A program made the position numbers and the translations under genes. A stretch of 15,135 nucleotides of DNA from a virus (Duplodnaviria > Heunggongvirae > Uroviricota > Caudoviricetes), in the IMG/VR virus record IMGVR_UViG_2721755498_000002; one strand, given 5' to 3'. Below the pieces are notes generated by a model. That model worked only from the letters and a program-made list of their open reading frames with translations, was not told the DNA's origin and did no database searches. Below, piece after piece: positions 1,264 through 15,135 of the stretch (the stretch's first letter is position 1; the number at the start of each line of letters is the position of its first letter).

Positions 1264-2156
1264 CTATTTCCAGTTACAAGCAGCTTGAAGTGGTTTTAGC
1301 GCGTTTGACAGGCCGTTTAAATTGAAAGTTGCACTTACAGGGCTCTCATTATAAGGAGTTATTTTTGTATACATTTTGTTTGAGTTGGCTAGTTTTCGGA
1401 TGAAATCAATGTCATTACCTTTATAAAAAACAGCCTTTGTATCTGTAGATACTAGCCAGTTTCGCTCAACTGCTTTCTGTTTATCAAGACGATAAAGCAT
1501 GCTGGTTTGTTCAAGGCCTAAATATACATCCCAACTAAGAAATACTTCGGTTTTCTTTTCTCGGCAAGCTATAAACAGAGTGGGAGTAACCGCTTCTCCA
1601 AATGGAGTTCTGATATAATCATCACTTTCTAACGATAAAATTACATTTTTCGAATCATCAATTGGCGATGTAGTAATGGATGTGTGCCATTTTCCTACAT
1701 CTGTGGCTTTCTCTAATTTTGATTCAGCTTGAACAGCTTTATCCTGTGGGAATAGTTTATCGTAGCAGTTTAGTCTGGCTTCTTTATCATTTTCTGCTCG
1801 GCATTTAGATATCTCAGAAAGATTTGGTTGCTGAGCCTCTGTTGTTACTGGCTTTTCCGTTTTAGATTTTGAGTTTACAGATGGAGTAAATGTTGGAGAA
1901 AAAAACGATCATAACAAGATAAACGTCTGTCATCATCTTTCTCATCAGGGCATTGATCTCTGCTTTCGAATTTTTCAGCAACTTTCGTTCGAGTCGGTTG
2001 TATTGACTTATCGTAACAAGAAAGTCTGTCTTTATTATTTTCTATTGCTCGGCACTGGAGTACTGCATTGAAGTTATTATGTTCAGTTGCTGCGTGAACA
2101 GGCAGTACACTAATTGATATAAATGATGCACCTATAGAAAAAATTATATTTTTCAT
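1264..2156 (-). pseudogene. secreted Cys-repeat protein gene split by a frameshift in an A7/T7 homopolymer (ORFs 1875..2156 and 1264..1908)
   Basis: The 93-aa ORF starts with a signal-peptide-like MKNIIFSIGASFISISVLPVHA. Its frame stops at 1875-1877, while a second frame is open from 1908 down to 1264 with no start codon until 1500. The two frames overlap across the A7 run at 1899-1905; one extra base would fuse them into about 297 aa. The motif RL[SN]CYD[KR] occurs three times across both halves, which supports a single original gene. Confidence 0.5.
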
Positions 2157-2160
2157 TTTG

Positions 2161-2493
2161 TTATCCTTTTGGTTTAGTAAGAAATACTAAAATTCCGATA
2201 ATGATATCGCCAATAACCCATAAACTTCCAATGGTAATTAAACCTAAGCCTGTACCAATAACTGCACCGGCTTTTTCGGCATCGGATGTAGCATTATTTA
2301 TTATTTCACTAGTGCCTCCCAGTCCAACTAAAAGCGTATAGATCATAAAAATATTAAATAATATAAATATCCACTTAATGAGCTTTCCAAAAAATGAACG
2401 CTTAAGTTTTTTTATTTGTTTACCGCAAGCAGGGCAATACAATGCTGAATCGCTCACCTCTTTCTGGCATTCAGGACATTTGATTAATGCCAT
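2161..2493 (-). CDS. zinc-ribbon domain membrane protein (N-terminal CPEC-x13-CPAC, then two hydrophobic glycine-rich helices)
   Basis: 110-aa ORF with a strong RBS (AAGGAGG) upstream of the ATG at 2493. Stop is 4 nt from the start of the downstream signal-peptide ORF, suggesting an operon. AT-rich. Confidence 0.6.
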   Translation of the reverse strand: MALIKCPECQKEVSDSALYCPACGKQIKKLKRSFFGKLIKWIFILFNIFMIYTLLVGLGGTSEIINNATSDAEKAGAVIGTGLGLITIGSLWVIGDIIIGILVFLTKPKG

Positions 2494-3536: not shown

Positions 3537-4559
3537 ATGGGAAGAGATATAACGCTGTACCCTAAAAAAGCAACTAGAAACGAACTTAAAAATTACCTTG
3601 AAAATTTAGGTTTTAAAAGGTGTAAACATTTGTGGGAATGGCCCCAAGGAACGTTGAATTACTCTTGGTTTGATGATACGGACTTCAAATCTACAGATGG
3701 AGTTTCGGCTGATATATATCCTGTTTCAAATGACGAATTACACATATCTGGTAATAAATGGGCATTGCATGTGCGTAATTTATATAGCGCTAGTTGGCAT
3801 GATGTAAAAATGCTTAATGATGTTCTAAAAGGCGCAAGGAGTCTTTTTGGTGGAACACTTATAGGTGATTATGGGAAAAATAGGTACGCTCCTCTATGGA
3901 AGGATTCTAGTAGTCCGATCAGTCGTGGCATTTCTTCAATATTTAATCATGTCCATCATGAGATTTCCGCTGTTAAACATGCCTTACCTGAACCTTCTAT
4001 TAAATTAAACCTACCGGAAGATGGCGGTTTATCCGAATACTTTGATTACATGCAATGTATGGATCCCAGTAGAGTTATATATAATGGATTAGTACCTTTT
4101 GCGGTTGCTATGTTTGAATACTTTTTCTCTAGAGCTTTTCAAATACTTATAAAGTACGATCCTTTCGCAATAGCAAAAAGAACATCGTATAAGCAAAAAG
4201 TTGATTTTGATATTCTGCTTGAGATAGAGAAAGGAAATATTTCAATAGAAAGTGTTATTGCAAGAAATTACACTTTTCAAAACTTAACCCACCTAAACAA
4301 AGCATATAAAGAGTGGCTGGATATAGATGTGAGAGCGATTCTTTATAAGAAAAAAAGAATTGGAAAATCAGTTGATTTTCTTGAGAATCGAATTTCTGAA
4401 ATCATACAATATAGACATGGGATAGTTCATCACTTTGAGTTGGATAGGACCTTAAATCGGGATGGATATATTCATATATTAGATGCGATAGAAAAAAGCA
4501 TAATTGAATTTATCCATTACATAGAAGGCAAATACAAATTTAAATTAAATGCGTATTAA
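3537..4559 (+). CDS. hypothetical 340-aa protein; AT-rich cargo gene with a C-terminal HEPN-like R-x4-H motif (YRHGIVHH, residues 292-299); candidate abortive-infection or defence protein
   Basis: Long uninterrupted ORF with strongly AT-biased codon usage, unlike the flanking phage genes. Sits between ogr and D on the opposite strand. Lys/Ile/Asn/Tyr-rich composition. No family recognised by eye. Confidence 0.7.
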   Translation: MGRDITLYPKKATRNELKNYLENLGFKRCKHLWEWPQGTLNYSWFDDTDFKSTDGVSADIYPVSNDELHISGNKWALHVRNLYSASWHDVKMLNDVLKGARSLFGGTLIGDYGKNRYAPLWKDSSSPISRGISSIFNHVHHEISAVKHALPEPSIKLNLPEDGGLSEYFDYMQCMDPSRVIYNGLVPFAVAMFEYFFSRAFQILIKYDPFAIAKRTSYKQKVDFDILLEIEKGNISIESVIARNYTFQNLTHLNKAYKEWLDIDVRAILYKKKRIGKSVDFLENRISEIIQYRHGIVHHFELDRTLNRDGYIHILDAIEKSIIEFIHYIEGKYKFKLNAY

Positions 4560-4679: not shown

Positions 4680-5789
4680 TCACTCTGTTTCTGCTATCCA
4701 TTCCGGGATTTTTGCCTCAAGCTCAAGCTGTGTGGTAAAGCCGCTGTTATCAATGGTGTGCTCGGCTTTCGCAATAATCCAGTCCTGATTATCAATCTCG
4801 CTTTTAAATCCTGTTACCGTGCCATGCATTTCGGGGTAGAGTTCTGCACGTCCACGCACCAGCGTGATGGAAAATAATGCGGCTCCGCGTTGTAGCTGCT
4901 GCCACTTTGCCGCCGCTGCGCGTCTTGCTGCCTGCTCGTTCTGATAAGTCTTGCGTAACACAAACACATTGCCTTCCGCGCCTTCCATATAATCACCTTC
5001 ACGGCTGCTGCTTTTCTCCTTTTTGGGTTTTGGCGGTTTGCGGCGTTTCACGCTGACTTTTTTCTTTTTCCCGTAATTAAGATCAAGCCAGTAAGCGCGT
5101 ACCCCCGTATACGCCTCGCGGTCAGCAATGCGGAACTGATGGCGATCGCCGCTGCTGCGTGTGATGGCGAACGATGGCAACGGCTGGCCCTGTGCGTTCA
5201 CGCCACCGCCGGGCATGATGAATAACAGATTACCGCTTTTTACCGTGGTGATTGCGCCCAGCATTTCCGCCATGCGCGTAAGGAAGGACATGTCGCTTTC
5301 TTCAGTCTGGTCGGCGTGGTCGATTTCGATATCCATCAGCATTTCGCTGATTTGCGGTTTCAGGCTGTACCGATGAGCGATGGCGGATACCACACGTTCA
5401 ACGTTCACATCATGCCAGGACGCCTCACGTTTAACATTAAATTCATCCCGAAAATCTGCGCTTCTGGCTGAAACAGTCAGCCTGTCCGGCGGTCCTTCGT
5501 GAGCGATTTCATCAACAATGTAAGTGCCTTTTTCTGTCAGCGGTTCCCCTTTCCAGCCAATGAGAACCGTCAGACGCGCGCCCCGTGGCGGTAGCTGCAA
5601 CTGGCCATCGGCATCATCCAGCGTGATGGTGAGCTGGTCCGCCTCAAATCCCCGGTTGTCGGTCAGTGACAGGCTCATCAGGCGTTCTGCCACGCCGGAC
5701 AGCGTTTTACCCTCGGCGAGAATATCAAAATCCGGCATTTTCACGGGGTCTGTGCCCTGACTGAGCAATTGCATGGTGGTGTCGGTCAT
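4680..5789 (-). CDS. D: P2 gpD-like tail protein (late control gene D family)
   Basis: The 413-aa ORF is trimmed here to the ATG at 5789-5787 (MTDTTMQLL...), which has a GGGAGGG RBS. Size of about 370 aa, the C-terminal GFKSEIDNQDWIIAKAEHTIDNSGFTTQLELE region, and the context next to a P2-like tail module fit gpD. Assignment is from memory of the family, not alignment. Confidence 0.75.
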   Translation of the reverse strand: MTDTTMQLLSQGTDPVKMPDFDILAEGKTLSGVAERLMSLSLTDNRGFEADQLTITLDDADGQLQLPPRGARLTVLIGWKGEPLTEKGTYIVDEIAHEGPPDRLTVSARSADFRDEFNVKREASWHDVNVERVVSAIAHRYSLKPQISEMLMDIEIDHADQTEESDMSFLTRMAEMLGAITTVKSGNLLFIMPGGGVNAQGQPLPSFAITRSSGDRHQFRIADREAYTGVRAYWLDLNYGKKKKVSVKRRKPPKPKKEKSSSREGDYMEGAEGNVFVLRKTYQNEQAARRAAAAKWQQLQRGAALFSITLVRGRAELYPEMHGTVTGFKSEIDNQDWIIAKAEHTIDNSGFTTQLELEAKIPEWIAETE

Positions 5790-5946
5790 CTGTTCCCTCC
5801 CTGTGCGGCATGGTCGCATGTGCGTGCGGAGGGGGTTACTGCTTTTTGTTGTCGCCGTGGCGGGAGAATAGCGCAGGGGTGAGATTACGCGCGTGGTGGG
5901 TGATGATTGTTGCTGAATCATTTAACGGATACAAGGGGCTGAAGCT

Positions 5947-7131
5947 ATGAGTGAAACTCGTTTTCATGGTGCCCGTGTTACGGAAAATACCGACCTGGTA
6001 ACAGCGATTAACGATGTTGATTCCAGCGTTATCGGTATCGTGGCAACGGCGGATGATGCGGACGCGAAGCTGTTCCCGCTGAACAAGCCCACATTGCTGA
6101 CCCGCGTCAATGACGTGCTGGGAAAATGCGGAACAACGGGGACGCTTTATCGTGCGCTTAAGGCCATCGCAGACCAGGTGAGCACAAAGGTGATCGTCGT
6201 TCGCGTGGCTGAACACAAAGAAGAAGACGGAAAGACGCAGGATCAACTGGTTATCGGTGGTTCTGAGGATGACGGCAGCTATACGGGGATGTATGCGCTG
6301 CTTGTTGCAGAGCAGGATGAAAGCATCGGATACCGTCCGCGTATTCTGGCCGCGCCAGAGCTGGACACGGAGGCTGTAACAAAATCCCTGTGCGTGATTG
6401 CAGGTAAACTGCGCGCGTTTGTGTATGCCTCATGTCACGGCTGTAACACGATGGCTGAGGCGATTACCTATCGCCAGAAATTCAACGAACGTGAGGTGAT
6501 GCTCTTATGGCCGGACTTCATCGCCTACAACCCGAAAAGTGGCAAAAACGAAACGTTCTCCGCGCCTGCCTATGCGTGCGGCCTTCGTGCGTACATTGAC
6601 CATGAGCAGGGGTGGCACAAATCACTGTCCAACGTTCCGGTTAAAAATGTGCTGGGGATGTCGAGGCATGTGTTCTGGTCGTTGCAGGCCGAAGACAGCG
6701 ATGCCAACAGCCTCAACAACAAAGAAATCACGACCATTATTCGTCGCAACGGGTTCCGCTTCTGGGGCAACCGCACACCGGAAACGAACGCCTACATCTT
6801 TGAGGTGTATACCCGAACCGCACAGGTGCTGGCTGATTCAATTGCGGAAGCGCAGTTTGAAACCATCGACAGTCCACTGACGCCTGCGAACGTGAAGGAT
6901 GTTATCAGTGCCATCAGGGCAAAACTGGATTCGCTGGTTACTGCCGGGAAACTGATTGGCGCGGAGTGCTGGTATGACGTGGTGGATAACGGCACCACGG
7001 ATTTACGTCAGGGGCGTGTGCGTATTCGCTACAAATATACGCCCGTTCCGCCACTGGAAGACATGGAGCTTTACCAGACGTTTACTGATGAATTCTTTGG
7101 TCCCGCATTTGCGGTGCTGGGAGGTGCCTGA
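5947..7131 (+). CDS. FI: contractile tail sheath protein (P2 gpFI family)
   Basis: 394 aa. Motifs DADA..FPLNKP, KLRAF, QGWHK, IRRNGFRFWGNRT, YTRTAQV and YTPVPPLE match the P2 FI sheath as recalled. Stop overlaps the FII start (ATGA). Confidence 0.9.
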   Translation: MSETRFHGARVTENTDLVTAINDVDSSVIGIVATADDADAKLFPLNKPTLLTRVNDVLGKCGTTGTLYRALKAIADQVSTKVIVVRVAEHKEEDGKTQDQLVIGGSEDDGSYTGMYALLVAEQDESIGYRPRILAAPELDTEAVTKSLCVIAGKLRAFVYASCHGCNTMAEAITYRQKFNEREVMLLWPDFIAYNPKSGKNETFSAPAYACGLRAYIDHEQGWHKSLSNVPVKNVLGMSRHVFWSLQAEDSDANSLNNKEITTIIRRNGFRFWGNRTPETNAYIFEVYTRTAQVLADSIAEAQFETIDSPLTPANVKDVISAIRAKLDSLVTAGKLIGAECWYDVVDNGTTDLRQGRVRIRYKYTPVPPLEDMELYQTFTDEFFGPAFAVLGGA

Positions 7132-7643
7132 TGGCTGTACCAAAACATCTTCGCTTTTTTACGTTGTTTGTGGATGGTGAAAACGAAGTGGGTAAAGTGA
7201 CATCCGTCACGCCGCCCAAACTGACGCGCAAAACCGACAGCTATCGTGGTGGTGGCATGATGGGGGCGGTAAGTATTGATCTCGGTCTGGACGACTCCGC
7301 GCTTGATGCGAGTTTTGTTATGGGGGGAGCTGTTCGTGCGCTGTTCCTTAAATATGGCGGCACGATTGACGGCACGCTGCTGCGTTTTGCGGGTGAATAC
7401 TACACCGATGCAGAAAGCGATCTGTATGAAATCGAGATGCGCGGACGTGTGACGGAAATTGATATGGGGGAAGCCAAACAGGGCGAAGCCACATCACACA
7501 CTTACGCTGTCAAAAACACCTACTACAAGCTGAGCGTTAACGATCGCCCGCTGTGGGAAATCGACCTGTTGAACCACATCTACCGGAAGGACGGCAAGGA
7601 CATTGTGCCTGACCGTATCCGTTCCGCGCTTGGGCTTGGCTGA
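7131..7643 (+). CDS. FII: tail tube protein (P2 gpFII family)
   Basis: 170 aa, immediately after the sheath gene with a translationally coupled start. Size and position are typical of FII. Confidence 0.85.
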   Translation: MAVPKHLRFFTLFVDGENEVGKVTSVTPPKLTRKTDSYRGGGMMGAVSIDLGLDDSALDASFVMGGAVRALFLKYGGTIDGTLLRFAGEYYTDAESDLYEIEMRGRVTEIDMGEAKQGEATSHTYAVKNTYYKLSVNDRPLWEIDLLNHIYRKDGKDIVPDRIRSALGLG

Positions 7644-11037: not shown

Positions 11038-11532
11038 ATGGCCATGATGATGATCTACGGCATGTTTGTTTTTGAGCTGCGCACATTGCCGCATCAGCAG
11101 TTACAGCAAAACAAAAGCTGGCGGCATGTGAAAAATGAACGCGTTAACCGTTCAGCAAGCTGGCAGTATATCGGCGCAGGTGATGATCGCATCGTGCTTT
11201 CCGGCGTGCTTTATCCTGAAATTACAGGTGGCGAAGTGTCGCTTTCGTTGCTGACCACACAGGCATATACAGGACGCCCCTGGCCTCTGATTGATGGTGT
11301 CGGGCAGATTTACGGCATGTATGTACTGACTGAAACGAATACGACCCGTTCCGAGTTTGATCGCTACGGTAAGGCGAAAAAGATAGAATTTTCACTGACC
11401 CTTGAACGCTGTGATGAGGATTTGCGGGAGCGTCTGCAATCCTCATCGTTCAGTGATATGCTGTCCGGCTTCAAAGATAAGGTCACATCATCCCTTAACA
11501 GCGCGGCCAGTTCAGTTAAAGGACTGTTCTGA
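11038..11532 (+). CDS. U: tail protein gpU
   Basis: 164 aa. MAMMMIYGMFVFELRTLPHQQ...AGVLYPEITGG...WPLIDG..IYGMYV matches P2 gpU as recalled. GAGGAG RBS. Confidence 0.85.
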   Translation: MAMMMIYGMFVFELRTLPHQQLQQNKSWRHVKNERVNRSASWQYIGAGDDRIVLSGVLYPEITGGEVSLSLLTTQAYTGRPWPLIDGVGQIYGMYVLTETNTTRSEFDRYGKAKKIEFSLTLERCDEDLRERLQSSSFSDMLSGFKDKVTSSLNSAASSVKGLF

Positions 11533-11628
11533 TTTTACATTGCCGCTAATACCCTCATATTGGGTAATGGGCGGCTTGTTGTTATATAATATATCGTAGG
11601 TCCTGATAAAACTGTTGAGGTTTCTACT

Positions 11629-12837
11629 TTATAAAGAATTGCTACTTTCTAATTCTGGGTTTCTGGATCTATTTTTACAACCTAAATCCGAGTGGTAATT
11701 CGGTATATCGTTTGTCAAATCTTGTTTGATAGCATTAATTAAGATCATTATGTCGAATTTATGCATATCGTCGCCCCCTTCAGACCTTAGATGTTCGGAT
11801 GTGGTGAGTTGAGTCGCTAATTTGCTGTTTGGCCCCCACACAATATTATTTTCGAATTTTCCTTCATGCATTCTGTTATTATATATACAGTATTGTCTAA
11901 TGTTTAATGCACTGGCTAAATGTACAATGGCAGTATCTACAGTTATAACAAAATCAGCATGGCGAACCAATGCAAATGAACATCCGGCATCAGAAAATGG
12001 AGATAGAGACACATTATCCAATCCATTGTGATTAATCTGTTTTCCCATATTAAAAACTATTGTGTGATATCCCTTAAGGTTATTAAGGTAAGCTAGTACT
12101 TTGTTTATCTGTTCATCAGATAAGGTTCTGCTATTCTGAGAGCCATAAGGGTTAAATATAACTAATTTTTTGTTTTTCTTCCTGAATTCATTTGCAACAA
12201 TATTTGCTGGTTCATATATTTTGTTGTCAAAATTAAGCGCTGCAGCATAATTATTATTTTTTATCTTTAGTAAAGATAAAACTTTTTTCATTCTTTCAGA
12301 TGTGTGAATGGAACGATTATCGATTATATTTGTATCAAAAATAGTTACGGCAGGATGATTAAAACAGATAGAGTGTTTAGGTCTAAGTAAATGTAGTGTT
12401 TGCAATCTGGTTATCGCTGTGTTATCAAAATTTGAGAAGTCAACAACAAGATCTACATTCAGTTTTTTTATCTTTGCTTTTAGTTCGTTAAATTTATTTT
12501 TCTCGTAAGATATAAAGGCATCCACGCCAACAATATCAGTAAAGAGGAATGATACTCTTGAAGGTGCTATCACATATACCACCATACCGGATTTTTGAAG
12601 TTGTTTAATAAACCCTGAGGTAACGATGCCGTCACCAATGGCTTGCATGTGCATGAAAATGCACACTGTTTTATAACTATCCGGCTGTAATGATGTTTTC
12701 CTTCTGTATCGCATTTTTAGAAATGCCAGTCTGGCCTTCGTCTTTATCTTTTTTGTTTTAATATTTCGCTGTCTGTTAAGCTGTTTTAATGATGAAATAA
12801 CATTCATAATGGTACCCTGAAATTCCAAATCACACAT
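11629..12837 (-). CDS. glycosyltransferase family 9 (heptosyltransferase-like) protein with a ~45-aa Lys/Arg-rich N-terminal extension; AT-rich cargo gene
   Basis: GT9 hallmarks: N-terminal Gly-Asp motif (MQAIGDGIV), central KKLVIFNPYGSQNSRTLSDEQ, and C-terminal VITVDTAIVHLASAL (compare WaaC VVSVDTGLSHLTAAL as recalled). Strong AT bias. The true start may be the internal ATG (MNVISS...) at about 12807. Confidence 0.65.
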   Translation of the reverse strand: MCDLEFQGTIMNVISSLKQLNRQRNIKTKKIKTKARLAFLKMRYRRKTSLQPDSYKTVCIFMHMQAIGDGIVTSGFIKQLQKSGMVVYVIAPSRVSFLFTDIVGVDAFISYEKNKFNELKAKIKKLNVDLVVDFSNFDNTAITRLQTLHLLRPKHSICFNHPAVTIFDTNIIDNRSIHTSERMKKVLSLLKIKNNNYAAALNFDNKIYEPANIVANEFRKKNKKLVIFNPYGSQNSRTLSDEQINKVLAYLNNLKGYHTIVFNMGKQINHNGLDNVSLSPFSDAGCSFALVRHADFVITVDTAIVHLASALNIRQYCIYNNRMHEGKFENNIVWGPNSKLATQLTTSEHLRSEGGDDMHKFDIMILINAIKQDLTNDIPNYHSDLGCKNRSRNPELESSNSL

Positions 12838-12901
12838 GTCATCCGAAATGAGCAGGGTACTATATAAAAAACTGGACTACAATGGTTTGAAATGAAAGCC
12901 T

Positions 12902-13501
12902 TTATGCTTGTTTACTCCTTGATTCCACTGGGGAAGCTGGCCACTCAATATCCGGTGCTCTTGATGTATCAACACGGTTCAGCAGCACTCGATACTTCTT
13001 CCAGGCTTCCAGCAACGAGATTTCTTCCTCCGTTGCGATTTCCAGATCTACAGCATCCTGAAGTGGCGCAATATGCTCACTGGCTACCTGCATCAGGCTG
13101 TTTTTTGTTTCTTCTGCCTCCCGGATCCGGAACAGTTTTTCTGCTTCCGTATCCTTCACCCAGGCTGTGCCGTTCCACTTCTGATATTCCCCTTCCGGCG
13201 ACGACCAGGTAACATTTTCCGGTAACGGACCGAGTTCAGAAATAAATAACGCGTCGCCGGAAGCCACGTCATAAACCGTTTTACCACGATGATCTTCAAC
13301 GAGATGCCAAGACGCCCCATCACTGTTGAAAACAGCCACGAAGCCAGCTGGAATATCTGGCGGAGCAATATCAGTACTATTTGCAGGCAGACCTGTATGA
13401 GGTGGAATGTATGCATCACCTTCACCAATAAATTCATTGGTTCCGACCAGCAGATTATAAATTTTTATGGTTCGTGGTTGTTCACTCATTCTGAATGCCA
13501 T
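12902..13501 (-). CDS. tfa: tail fibre assembly protein (Tfa / P2 gpG-like chaperone)
   Basis: 199 aa with the conserved Tfa C-terminus ([30 protein letters not shown]). Start overlaps the stop of the upstream tail-fibre fragment (TAATG). Confidence 0.85.
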
Positions 13502-13744
13502 TATGCAAGCCTCACAATATAGTTAAATGCGATGTTTTTTACGGTGTTTTCCGCGTTGCCATAAGCGGCAATGGTAATGGTGTGTGTGTGCGAACCAATA
13601 GCGAGCGTATGTGTATGCGCACCTATTGCTACTGTGTGAGTATGAGCTCCTGCGCTTAATACGCGATTACTTGCTGTCTTGCTTGTGTTAGTTGCATGCA
13701 TTCCACCACCGGTACCGGGAGTTTCTGCGTATGCTGAAGTATTG
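13501..13744 (-). pseudogene. tail fibre gene, C-terminal fragment only (His-x-His repeats [24 protein letters not shown]); 5' part replaced by IS1
   Basis: The reading frame runs into the IS1 left end at 13745 and the listed Met lies inside IS1. The C-terminal HTHT repeat region is typical of phage tail-fibre distal domains. Confidence 0.8.
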
Positions 13745-13799
13745 GGTGATGCTGCCAACTTACTGATTTAGTGTATGATGGTGTTTTTGAGGTGCTCCA

Positions 13800-14075
13800 G
13801 TGGCTTCTGTTTCTATCAGCTGTCCCTCCTGTTCAGCTACTGACGGGGTGGTGCGTAACGGCAAAAGCACCGCCGGACATCAGCGCTATCTCTGCTCTCA
13901 CTGCCGTAAAACATGGCAACTGCAGTTCACTTACACCGCTTCTCAACCCGGTACGCACCAGAAAATCATTGATATGGCCATGAATGGCGTTGGATGCCGG
14001 GCAACAGCCCGCATTATGGGCGTTGGCCTCAACACGATTTTACGTCACTTAAAAAACTCAGGCCGCAGTCGGTAA
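13800..14075 (+). CDS. insA: IS1 InsA (transposition repressor / N-terminal part of the InsAB' transposase)
   Basis: 91 aa; [43 protein letters not shown] is the canonical InsA sequence. Confidence 0.9.
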
Positions 14076-14497
14076 CCTCGCGCATACAGCCGGGCAGTGA
14101 CGTCATCGTCTGCGCGGAAATGGACGAACAGTGGGGATACGTCGGGGCTAAATCGCGCCAGCGCTGGCTGTTTTACGCGTATGACAGGCTCCGGAAGACG
14201 GTTGTTGCGCACGTATTCGGTGAACGCACTATGGCGACGCTGGGGCGTCTTATGAGCCTGCTGTCACCCTTTGACGTGGTGATATGGATGACGGATGGCT
14301 GGCCGCTGTATGAATCCCGCCTGAAGGGAAAGCTGCACGTAATCAGCAAGCGATATACGCAGCGAATTGAGCGGCATAACCTGAATCTGAGGCAGCACCT
14401 GGCACGGCTGGGACGGAAGTCGCTGTCGTTCTCAAAATCGGTGGAGCTGCATGACAAAGTCATCGGGCATTATCTGAACATAAAACACTATCAATAA
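13994..14497 (+). CDS. insB: IS1 InsB reading frame (expressed as the InsAB' transposase by -1 frameshift at TTAAAAAAC, 14049-14057)
   Basis: 167-aa frame matching canonical IS1 InsB ([27 protein letters not shown]...KHYQ). Confidence 0.85.
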
Positions 14498-14512
14498 GTT
14501 GGAGTCATTACC

Positions 14513-15135
14513 TGAATCGGTTATCCGGAATGTTTACCGTGCTGAAAAAAATAGGTCTTTGGGATGCAGAACATCCAGTAAGGGGAATTTCTATTCTTTA
14601 TGTATCTCCACGAGAAATGGCGTTCCTGTCACAGAAGGAAGTGGCGCTATTGCTCGATACACTGGAGGGCGACTACTGGCGTGTTGCGCTTTTGTGTTTA
14701 AGCACAGGGGCGCGCTGGAGTGAAGCTTGTAAGCTTCGTGGTGAACAGATAGTTCATAACCGTGTAACGTTTCTTGAAACCAAAAATGGCCGGAAGAGAA
14801 CAGTGCCAATTTCGCAGGCAGTTTGTGAGGCGATCAAAACCAGAGAAACAGGCGGCTTGTTTGAGGTGAAGTACCGGGAATTCTGCCTGGCGCTGAAAAG
14901 AGTTAAGCCCGATTTACCAAAAGGCCAGGCTGCACATGTGCTGCGGCATACGTTCGCCAGCCATTTTGTGATGAACGGAGGAAACATTATTGCGCTTCAG
15001 AAGATTCTTGGTCACGCAACCATTCAGCAAACAATGGCATATGCGCATTTTGCACCGGATTACCTGCAGGATGCGGTGGCCCTTAATCCGCTGAAAGGTG
15101 GCGTAAGTGTCCACGCAGTGTCCACGGGGGATTAA
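14513..15135 (+). pseudogene. int: tyrosine recombinase (phage integrase) C-terminal catalytic-domain fragment; N-terminal part removed at the IS1 junction
   Basis: The frame is open straight out of the IS1 right end. It contains the catalytic R (GARWSEA), H-x-x-R (HVLRHTFAS) and Tyr (TMAYAHF) motifs. About 207 codons, where an intact integrase would be around 330-400. Stop is at the window end. Confidence 0.8.

Follow-up and report, generated by a model that had tools for sequence, protein, structure and literature searches.

A WaaU-type glycosyltransferase gene beside the tail-fibre genes of an Escherichia coli P2-family prophage remnant, with a probable role in lipopolysaccharide modification

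Genes that modify lipopolysaccharide (LPS) are a known theme of phage cargo. The serotype-conversion systems of the GtrABC/Oac type, carried by Shigella and Salmonella phages, modify the O-antigen, for the most part on the periplasmic side, by way of a bactoprenol-linked sugar. In phage P2, the Z/fun locus lies between genes G and FI, and all operons are co-directional. Here, we analysed a 15,135-nucleotide stretch of viral DNA (IMG/VR record IMGVR_UViG_2721755498_000002, hereafter the window), which contains a remnant of a P2-family (Peduoviridae) prophage and is 100% identical to the flk-pdxB interval of E. coli strain H1 (NZ_CP010160). On its minus strand, at 11629..12807, it carries a gene whose product, WP_001100987.1, already bears the RefSeq name 'glycosyltransferase family 9 protein' (GT9). 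Sequence comparison clearly points to E. coli K-12 WaaU, the outer-core heptosyltransferase IV, as its nearest characterised relative. WaaU extends the K-12 outer core by adding HepIV to GlcIII, which is where the O-antigen is attached (PMC13293308). In the K-12 annotation, the enzyme is merely called 'putative'. We propose, with a probability of roughly 0.58, that the window gene is a prophage moron encoding a WaaU-clade GT9 enzyme that would remodel LPS, probably in the outer core, and so cause lysogenic conversion.

The first-pass annotation of this region, made from the sequence alone, had described an AT-rich open reading frame (ORF) of 402 amino acids (aa) on the minus strand. Such an ORF exists (11629-12837); the span 11533-12901 that had been given covers the whole gap between gpU and tfa and not the ORF. 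The probable start is the ATG at 12807, which yields a protein of 392 aa; RefSeq uses the same start, and the equivalent Met is the start in most homologues of the family alignment. The alternative upstream ATG at 12837 adds 10 aa, and the stop codon lies at 11629-11631. This coding sequence (CDS) is backed by the ORF list, RefSeq, Pfam, AlphaFold (AF2) modelling, Foldseek and hhalign. Its GC content is 0.33, compared with 0.48 across the window and 0.52-0.58 in the tail genes, in line with the earlier description of foreign, AT-rich prophage cargo adjoining tail-fibre genes. Homologues form 34 clusters in the 90% database, and a profile search returned 118 representative clusters at E<=1e-30 and 760 at E<=1e-10. 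The CDS is annotated as normal and intact in all carriers listed, and dN/dS relative to a 76%-identical metagenomic copy is ~0.16 (0.158/1.01). The cluster counts, the intact CDS and the low dN/dS together indicate that the ORF is a real gene rather than a chance one and that it is under purifying selection.

Sequence and model data indicate that the protein is a divergent GT9 glycosyltransferase. Pfam PF01075 (Glyco_transf_9) matched just above threshold (26.8 bits against a gathering cutoff of 22, E 3.9e-6), and this match is partial, being restricted to the C-terminal domain (aa 218-322 against profile positions 100-212 of 247). Sequence searches of the PDB with the protein and with the family profile gave no significant match, the best relevant one being WaaC (E 0.06) over the VDT..H region. 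The AF2 model, which was built on a 27-sequence alignment, reached a mean predicted local distance difference test (pLDDT) score of 87.5 and a predicted template modelling (pTM) score of 0.83. It adopts a GT-B fold, in which a long N-terminal helix (residues 3-43) is followed by two Rossmann-like domains and by a disordered tail from residue 378. Foldseek against the PDB placed GT9 structures at the top, namely 3tov (E 7e-14), WaaC (6dfe, 2h1h and 2gt1) and WaaF (1psw); 3tov, 6dfe, 2h1h and 1psw were matched at E 7e-14 to 1e-10 with template modelling (TM) scores of 0.55-0.62 by query length. The GT9-type identity suggested at first pass is thus borne out by a PF01075 score above cutoff and by best structural matches to GT9, WaaC and WaaF.

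Both motifs quoted at first pass are present (residue numbers such as G68, D69, R237 and D301 follow the 402-aa ORF). The Gly-Asp pair G68-D69 of the 'AIGDG' motif (12631..12636, minus strand), at the start of helix alpha-1, follows the strand E57-61, is invariant in the 27 sequences and aligns with the GD of WaaU and WaaQ. D69, the presumed catalytic base, is one that we take to be equivalent to WaaC Asp13. The second motif, VITVDTAIVHLASAL (aa 297-311; 11905..11949, minus strand), is the GT9 sugar-nucleotide-binding motif and aligns with WaaC V258-D272; its D301, T302 and H306 fall on WaaC D261, T262 and H266 and are invariant in the family. R237 aligns with WaaC K192, and N229, P230 and R237 are likewise invariant in the 27 sequences. 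Because the GD pair, R237, D301/T302 and H306 are all invariant, the enzyme looks catalytically competent. The last 25 aa (11632..11706, minus strand; residues 378-402) are predicted to be disordered (pLDDT <50) and belong to E. coli copies only, as no such tail is present in Providencia or other homologues of the family alignment.

When the family profile was compared by hhalign with individual core enzymes, K-12 WaaU was matched best (probability 99.5%, E 4e-22) over 305 columns that cover residues 32-349 and include the basic N-terminus. The match to WaaQ (E 7e-9) spans 277 columns from the GD motif on, that to WaaC (E 2e-6) spans 189 columns (residues 116-319) with the GD region outside it, and that to WaaF (E 1e-3) is limited to 34 columns around the VDT..H motif. 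BLASTP against K-12 WaaU gave 23% identity over 334 aa (E 3e-17). These comparisons place the protein in the same clade as WaaU, orthology not being implied at 23% identity. Like WaaU (RfaK of K-12, b3623), it has a GT-B/GT9 core, GD and VDTA.VH motifs, an NN/WGPN-type C-terminal block and a basic N-terminal extension of ~45 aa, and both genes are AT-rich (GC 0.31 for waaU). The two differ in that waaU is a waa-cluster gene, the last glycosyltransferase gene of the waaQ operon, whereas the window gene is prophage-borne beside tail-fibre genes; in the 25-aa disordered tail of the E. coli prophage copy; and in their hosts, that of the window gene being R3-type, without an encoded K-12-type GlcIII-HepIV structure. 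With WaaC, WaaF and WaaQ (GT9; PDB 2H1H, 6DFE, 1PSW), the protein shares the fold, the D-T-(G/A)-x-x-H motif and a Lys/Arg at WaaC position 192. These enzymes have no basic N-terminal helix, however; profile similarity to them is much weaker, and heptosyltransferase equivalog scores are ~21-23 bits against cutoffs of 185-467.

The basic N-terminal segment (aa 1-45 of the 392-aa protein; 12673..12807, minus strand; charge count and DSSP) has a net charge of ~+13, with 14 Lys/Arg and 1 Asp/Glu. It is predicted to form one long helix (DSSP 3-43, 402-aa numbering) ahead of the first Rossmann strand, and N21, R22, N25, K29, K32 and R45 within it are invariant or nearly so across the family. Most of the distant representatives listed align from profile positions 1-10, i.e., they keep this segment. 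It aligns with residues 14-45 of K-12 WaaU, whose leader holds 10 Lys/Arg and 1 Asp/Glu, whereas WaaC and WaaF start directly at the first strand and GD motif. The Lys/Arg-rich extension noticed at first pass is therefore real, and it is indeed absent from WaaC and WaaF; it is not unusual, since WaaU has it and it is conserved family-wide. Because WaaU carries a comparable, aligned basic leader, the extension is a feature of the WaaU clade.

The close family is found mainly in Providencia, in Orbaceae (Orbus, Gilliamella and Schmidhempelia), in Symbiopectobacterium and in a Citrobacter species. Homologues at 43-57% identity occur in three types of context: an LPS core cluster, the edge of an O-antigen locus and a prophage. 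One homologue (P0009, 55% identical) ends an operon that reads GT9 (WaaQ-like), GT4, Kdo-kinase-family, GT4, GT8, GT8 and then the homologue itself. On its 3' side lie genes for Glycos_transf_N (waaA-like), CTP_transf_like (coaD-like), GT2 and Fapy-glycosylase (mutM-like) proteins and the L33/L28 ribosomal protein genes. Judged by gene order, this position corresponds to that of waaU or waaK in Enterobacterales, so that a close relative does hold the place of the last glycosyltransferase gene of such an operon. The Gilliamella copies adjoin a GT9 paralogue and two GT8 genes with an RfaI/J-type C-terminal domain, and the Orbus copy adjoins GT2, GT9 and two sulfatase-family genes. Kinship to WaaU and these LPS-cluster contexts make LPS-core modification, which had been put forward at first pass, the best-supported reading of the function.

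As we picture it, the gene would be an accessory 'moron', dispensable for phage growth, and its product a cytoplasmic, membrane-associated GT-B enzyme. Through the basic N-terminal helix, the enzyme would be tethered to the inner membrane at its anionic inner face, the site of lipid A-core assembly. The Asp of the GD motif would act as catalytic base, and the C-terminal domain (R237, D301-T302, H306) would bind the nucleotide sugar, most likely ADP-L-glycero-D-manno-heptose. Transfer of the sugar to a distal residue of lipid A-core would precede export and ligation of the O-antigen. In the lysogen, an R3-type host without its own waaU, the outer core would thus be changed and the LPS receptor masked or altered; lysogenic conversion or superinfection exclusion could follow, and O-antigen ligation could be affected. 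What we infer here is which sugar is donated and to which acceptor, that the helix acts at the membrane, that the gene is expressed in the lysogen and that adsorption is affected. The likeness to GtrABC/Oac-type serotype conversion lies in prophage cargo that borders the structural or integration module, with an expected LPS change and adsorption block, and in acetyltransferase or GT2 genes that occur beside homologues or in the same slot. The difference is that a soluble or peripheral cytoplasmic GT9 enzyme of core-biosynthesis type is predicted here.

Several observations weigh against an outer-core moron. The WaaC and WaaQ heptosyltransferase equivalogs of NCBIfam scored far below their cutoffs (TIGR02193, 22.8 against 185.3; NF007742, 21.3 against 467), and at 23% identity the donor and acceptor of WaaU are not transferable to this enzyme. 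A promoter and terminator scan of 11400-13100 gave no convincing candidate upstream of the gene on the minus strand. The spacer between tfa and the GT9 gene likewise holds no canonical sigma-70 promoter or terminator, so that the gene may be read only from the late operon. A near-identical tfa (89.5%, E. coli 55989) occurs without this gene, which means that the gene is not bound to one fibre specificity. Lastly, the homologue P0027 and that of Citrobacter sp. JGM124 are flanked by asmA and galF at the border of the O-antigen locus, and one homologue is an orphan by context; because of these copies, the acceptor could be other than lipid A-core.

The asmA/galF copies bear most directly on one of the rival explanations, which were ranked in the analysis: an enzyme of the same type may act on an undecaprenyl-linked glycan (an O-antigen unit, enterobacterial common antigen or a capsule precursor) and the gene be a serotype-converting one. 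We consider this unlikely, yet worth keeping in view. It would fit the hexapeptide acetyltransferase and GT2 genes that accompany phage-borne homologues as co-cargo, since these are typical O-antigen modifiers, and also the acetyltransferase gene in the same slot of E. coli 55989. The nearest characterised relative is nevertheless a core enzyme, WaaU, and the most informative contexts are core clusters with waaQ/G/P/GT8/waaA-type genes. To our knowledge, moreover, characterised GT9 enzymes act on lipid A-core or, in the case of Aah/TibC, on proteins, and this too argues against an O-antigen acceptor.

Action on a protein was the second possibility raised at first pass, and we regard it as very improbable. 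The enzyme would in that case be an Aah/TibC-type protein heptosyltransferase, with an autotransporter or the phage's own tail fibre as target. Aah/TibC (PDB 4RAP), which are distant GT9-like enzymes with a GT-B fold, belong to the same broad fold family as the window protein and are similar to it in length (~390 aa); TibC was found by Foldseek (E 1.6e-6), and the gene adjoins tail-fibre genes in several phages. TibC (4rap) ranked only 26th by Foldseek, however, with a TM score of 0.46 compared with ~0.6 for WaaC, WaaF and 3tov (E 1e-11 to 1e-14), and no sequence match to TibC was obtained at E<=10 with either the protein or the family profile. The PDB sequence searches and the Foldseek ranking lead us to reject Aah/TibC identity. 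The window holds no autotransporter gene, the neighbours being tfa, the H fragment, IS1 and gpU, and the LPS clusters that house chromosomal homologues contain neither phage nor adhesin genes. TibC has a conserved, iron-binding Cys cluster; the window protein has 5 Cys, none of which is invariant across the family.

Concerning the locus itself, the genes of the window are arranged, from left to right, as flk; a frameshifted TagO-like gene, a zinc-ribbon gene, hok and ogr; an AT-rich ORF of 340 aa; gpD (minus strand); FI, FII, E/E', T and U (plus strand); the GT9 gene, tfa/gpG and the end of H (all minus strand); IS1; an integrase fragment; and pdxB. Gene gpU (11038..11532, plus strand; Pfam Phage_P2_GpU, 133 bits), the last gene of the convergent FI-FII-E-T-U operon, forms one border of the interval in which the GT9 gene lies. 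On the other side, a spacer of 94 nucleotides (12808..12901, minus strand) separates the start of the GT9 gene from the stop of tfa. The latter encodes the tail-fibre assembly protein gpG/Tfa (12902..13501, minus strand; Pfam Caudo_TAP, 149 bits; PHROG 105). The last 85 codons of the tail-fibre gene H follow (13501..13758, minus strand; Pfam and RefSeq), cut by IS1; a full-length H is present in strain 165 (L002 17969-20080). Part of the spacer (TTGTAG..ATATAGTA.CCTG) is common to the window and the 76%-identical copy, and alignment of the upstream spacers of six loci revealed conservation with this closest copy only.

The segment 4600-11539 of the window aligns in one piece, at ~91-96% identity, with P88, P884B11 (Xuanwuvirus), 500465-2 (Gemsvirus), Shae_phiSM and other relatives, and the match to P88-like phages stops at 11539. 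The annotated relatives inspected, P88 and 500465-2, have the order D(-)/FI-U(+) ... G,H(-), as in the window. Their U-G interval contains a DNA invertase, an alternative fibre tip and tfa, i.e., a host-range switch of the Gin/Cin type, and the GT9 gene is lacking in the related phages. In E. coli 55989 and many others, the gpU-tfa interval is occupied, on the opposite strand, by a gene for a hexapeptide 'serine acetyltransferase' of 190 aa, and in 49 genomes it holds the GT9 gene, so that the slot has three states (window 11533-12901 compared with L062 8216-10427, L063 13924-15386 and L072 3491-4262). Given that the window tfa is 89.5% identical to that of 55989, the cargo varies independently of the fibre. 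The interval between gpU and tfa is a true variable cargo slot after tfa, bounded by convergent operons. PHROG 36326, the family of the glycosyltransferase, is listed with function unknown.

At first pass, this slot had been equated with the Z/fun hotspot of P2, and this equation does not hold. The H-G and FI-U operons converge, and the gene lies between the convergent G (minus strand) and U (plus strand), which is the native order of P88/Gemsvirus. With Z/fun, the slot shares a cargo position immediately after G and a content that varies among relatives. It differs in the convergence of G and U, a feature of P88/Xuanwuvirus and Gemsvirus, so that the two slots are analogous and not homologous. 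A rearranged Z/fun, produced by inversion of FI-U, was considered and rejected, as no flanking inverted repeats were found and the layout matches P88, P884B11, 500465-2 and Shae_phiSM contiguously. As to position, the gene does lie directly downstream of tfa on the same strand, as had been said; it does not adjoin the sheath/tube block, since its other neighbour is the convergent 3' end of gpU, and sheath and tube lie at 5947-7643.

The supposed link with a defence hotspot falls away with Z/fun: PADLOC gave no match at E<=0.01, which rejects a known defence system, and a link of this slot with defence is not demonstrated. Anti-phage defence by a route other than the receptor, for instance by glycosylation of an intracellular target, would be in keeping with a variable prophage cargo slot. 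We nonetheless hold it to be scarcely plausible, given the PADLOC result, the single-gene nature of the cargo and its clear tie to a family of LPS enzymes. The survey of P2/P4 hotspots covers a different locus, old/tin, and makes no mention of glycosyltransferases (PMC9122126).

Homologues of the gene recur after the tail-fibre genes of other prophages. In these prophages, the homologue and the last tail-fibre or tfa gene share a strand, with the homologue 85-140 bp downstream. In P. stuartii, P. alcalifaciens and Providencia sp. PROV039, the copy lies at the prophage end in E217/Pam3-like myoviruses, with a hexapeptide acetyltransferase gene next to it in P. alcalifaciens. In P. rettgeri, it is part of a Mu-like prophage and is followed by GT2 and then by an integrase gene. 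One homologue follows the fibre C-terminus of a degraded prophage, another has a tfa fragment upstream (L074), and two further copies have integrase, DinI or SocA genes as neighbours; one of these two copies (P0017) also adjoins a GT25 gene. No similarity of gpU, sheath or gpD was detected between the tails of the Providencia prophages and the window; as these tails are unrelated, the gene has been acquired, or has been moved, at the fibre end in no fewer than three phage lineages.

When the P. stuartii module is compared with the window, the C-terminus of H is 33%, tfa 43% and GT9 53% identical. The idea that fibre tip, tfa and GT9 form a strict cassette finds only partial support, since the 89.5%-identical tfa of E. 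coli 55989 pairs with an acetyltransferase. As a tentative extension, which we think possible but doubtful, temperate myoviruses may have, at their tail-fibre end, a common docking site at which WaaU-clade enzymes are swapped between P88-, E217- and Mu-like phages and edit an LPS outer-core epitope. Recombination would take place at the conserved 3' end of tfa or of the fibre gene, and the edited epitope would be the one recognised by the phage's own or rival fibres. Conversion at such a site would be at the level of the core instead of the O-antigen, and O-antigen ligation could be redirected.

A tblastn search of a phage genome collection found no close homologue, the only match being a 23%-identical ORF in two Campylobacter phage records, and the BFVD contained only distant phage GT9 proteins. 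The Campylobacter phage ORFs (MG065691.1 142249-143205 and MG065686.1 30918-31874) are GT9-like and lie in unannotated records of ~174 kb (A11a, A18a). In Symbiopectobacterium purcellii, a 50%-identical homologue (L007 8001-9085) lies amid several transposase genes; its longest ORF is 319 aa, and it is probably a decaying copy.

Within E. coli, 49 of the 5426 complete genomes (0.9%) carry the gene, and the U-GT9-tfa arrangement is intact in 46. The copies are 94-100% identical across unrelated strains and occupy at least two chromosomal sites, flk/pdxB in H1 and a site next to ihfA in strain 165. This distribution bears on whether the gene does anything at all in its present host. It could be a silent hitch-hiker, brought in from a Providencia-like source with tail-fibre DNA and either not expressed or without an acceptor in E. 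coli, which we judge decidedly unlikely. Its rarity would agree with such a passenger, as would the lack of a recognisable promoter, the state of the window prophage (a remnant cut by IS1), the nearest non-E. coli relatives in Providencia and Orbaceae and the GC content of 0.33. Against it stand the intact CDS in every carrier listed, the high identity across unrelated strains and integration sites, the dN/dS of ~0.16 and the retention of all catalytic-motif residues.

The waa cluster of the host H1 reads waaQ-G-P-waaO(I)-Y-J-'GlcNAc transferase'-waaL and has no waaU, a gene order that we take to be that of the R3 core type. The R3-specific segment was found in 1364 of the 5426 genomes, and at least six carriers (H1, STEC409, ETEC1746, L6-21, ET729 and PEC389) are among the 60 R3-segment genomes listed. 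As these rows were ranked by similarity to H1, the overlap of carriers with R3 is suggestive only.

A glycosyltransferase as prophage cargo is unsurprising as such, and the finding draws on homology and gene context. Searches of the literature for GT9 enzymes or heptosyltransferases that phages or prophages encode near tail-fibre genes returned nothing relevant; we found there no description of a core-type GT9/WaaU-like enzyme as LPS-modifying phage cargo, nor of the repeated placement of WaaU-like GT9 genes after tail-fibre genes. If a sugar is indeed added to the outer core, phage-driven conversion would take place at the LPS core and not at the O-antigen, through a cytoplasmic GT9 enzyme, and core typing based on the waa locus only would miss such a change. 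It could help to explain differences between strains in sensitivity to core-docking phages. This would matter for phage therapy and typing, because several carriers bear names in the style of carbapenem-resistant strains (AR_0118, AR_0119, AR_0128, CREC-591 and FXCREC004). The gene also opens a way, tied to function, into a GT9 clade that has been little studied and that numbers ~118 representative clusters at E<=1e-30.

With regard to the rest of the prophage, the IS1 transposase ORFs lie at 13771-14497, and a truncated tyrosine integrase gene abuts IS1 next to pdxB (window 13501-15135). Baseplate, head, lysis and replication genes are gone from the window prophage, which is thus a non-inducible remnant. 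In the strain 165 prophage, which is more complete, a fragment of tail gene I is fused beside a fragment of the major capsid gene (L002 20083-21057); the deletion removes the baseplate and head-completion genes, so that this GT9-bearing copy is also defective.

The gpD ORF (4680-5921, minus strand) is intact, with 413 aa, and is annotated at full length in 500465-2. The RefSeq annotation of H1 gives a gpD of 266 aa only (4680-5480) and a small pseudo fragment on the other strand; this discrepancy looks like an annotation inconsistency rather than a lesion. Between ogr and gpD, the 340-aa ORF (3537-4559, plus strand; GC ~0.35) gave a sub-threshold Pfam match to HEPN_RiboL-PSP (22.5 against 28.4 bits) and no NCBIfam, PADLOC or PHROG match. 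The gene is also present in the phage record 500465-2, and it looks like a second cargo gene, possibly with a role in defence. Finally, the AT-rich stretch between flk and hok (1264-2493, minus strand) contains a frameshifted TagO/VasI-like (type VI secretion-associated) gene, split into the ORFs 1264-1500 and 1875-2156, and a gene (2161-2493) whose 110-aa zinc-ribbon product gave a weak DrpB-like match.

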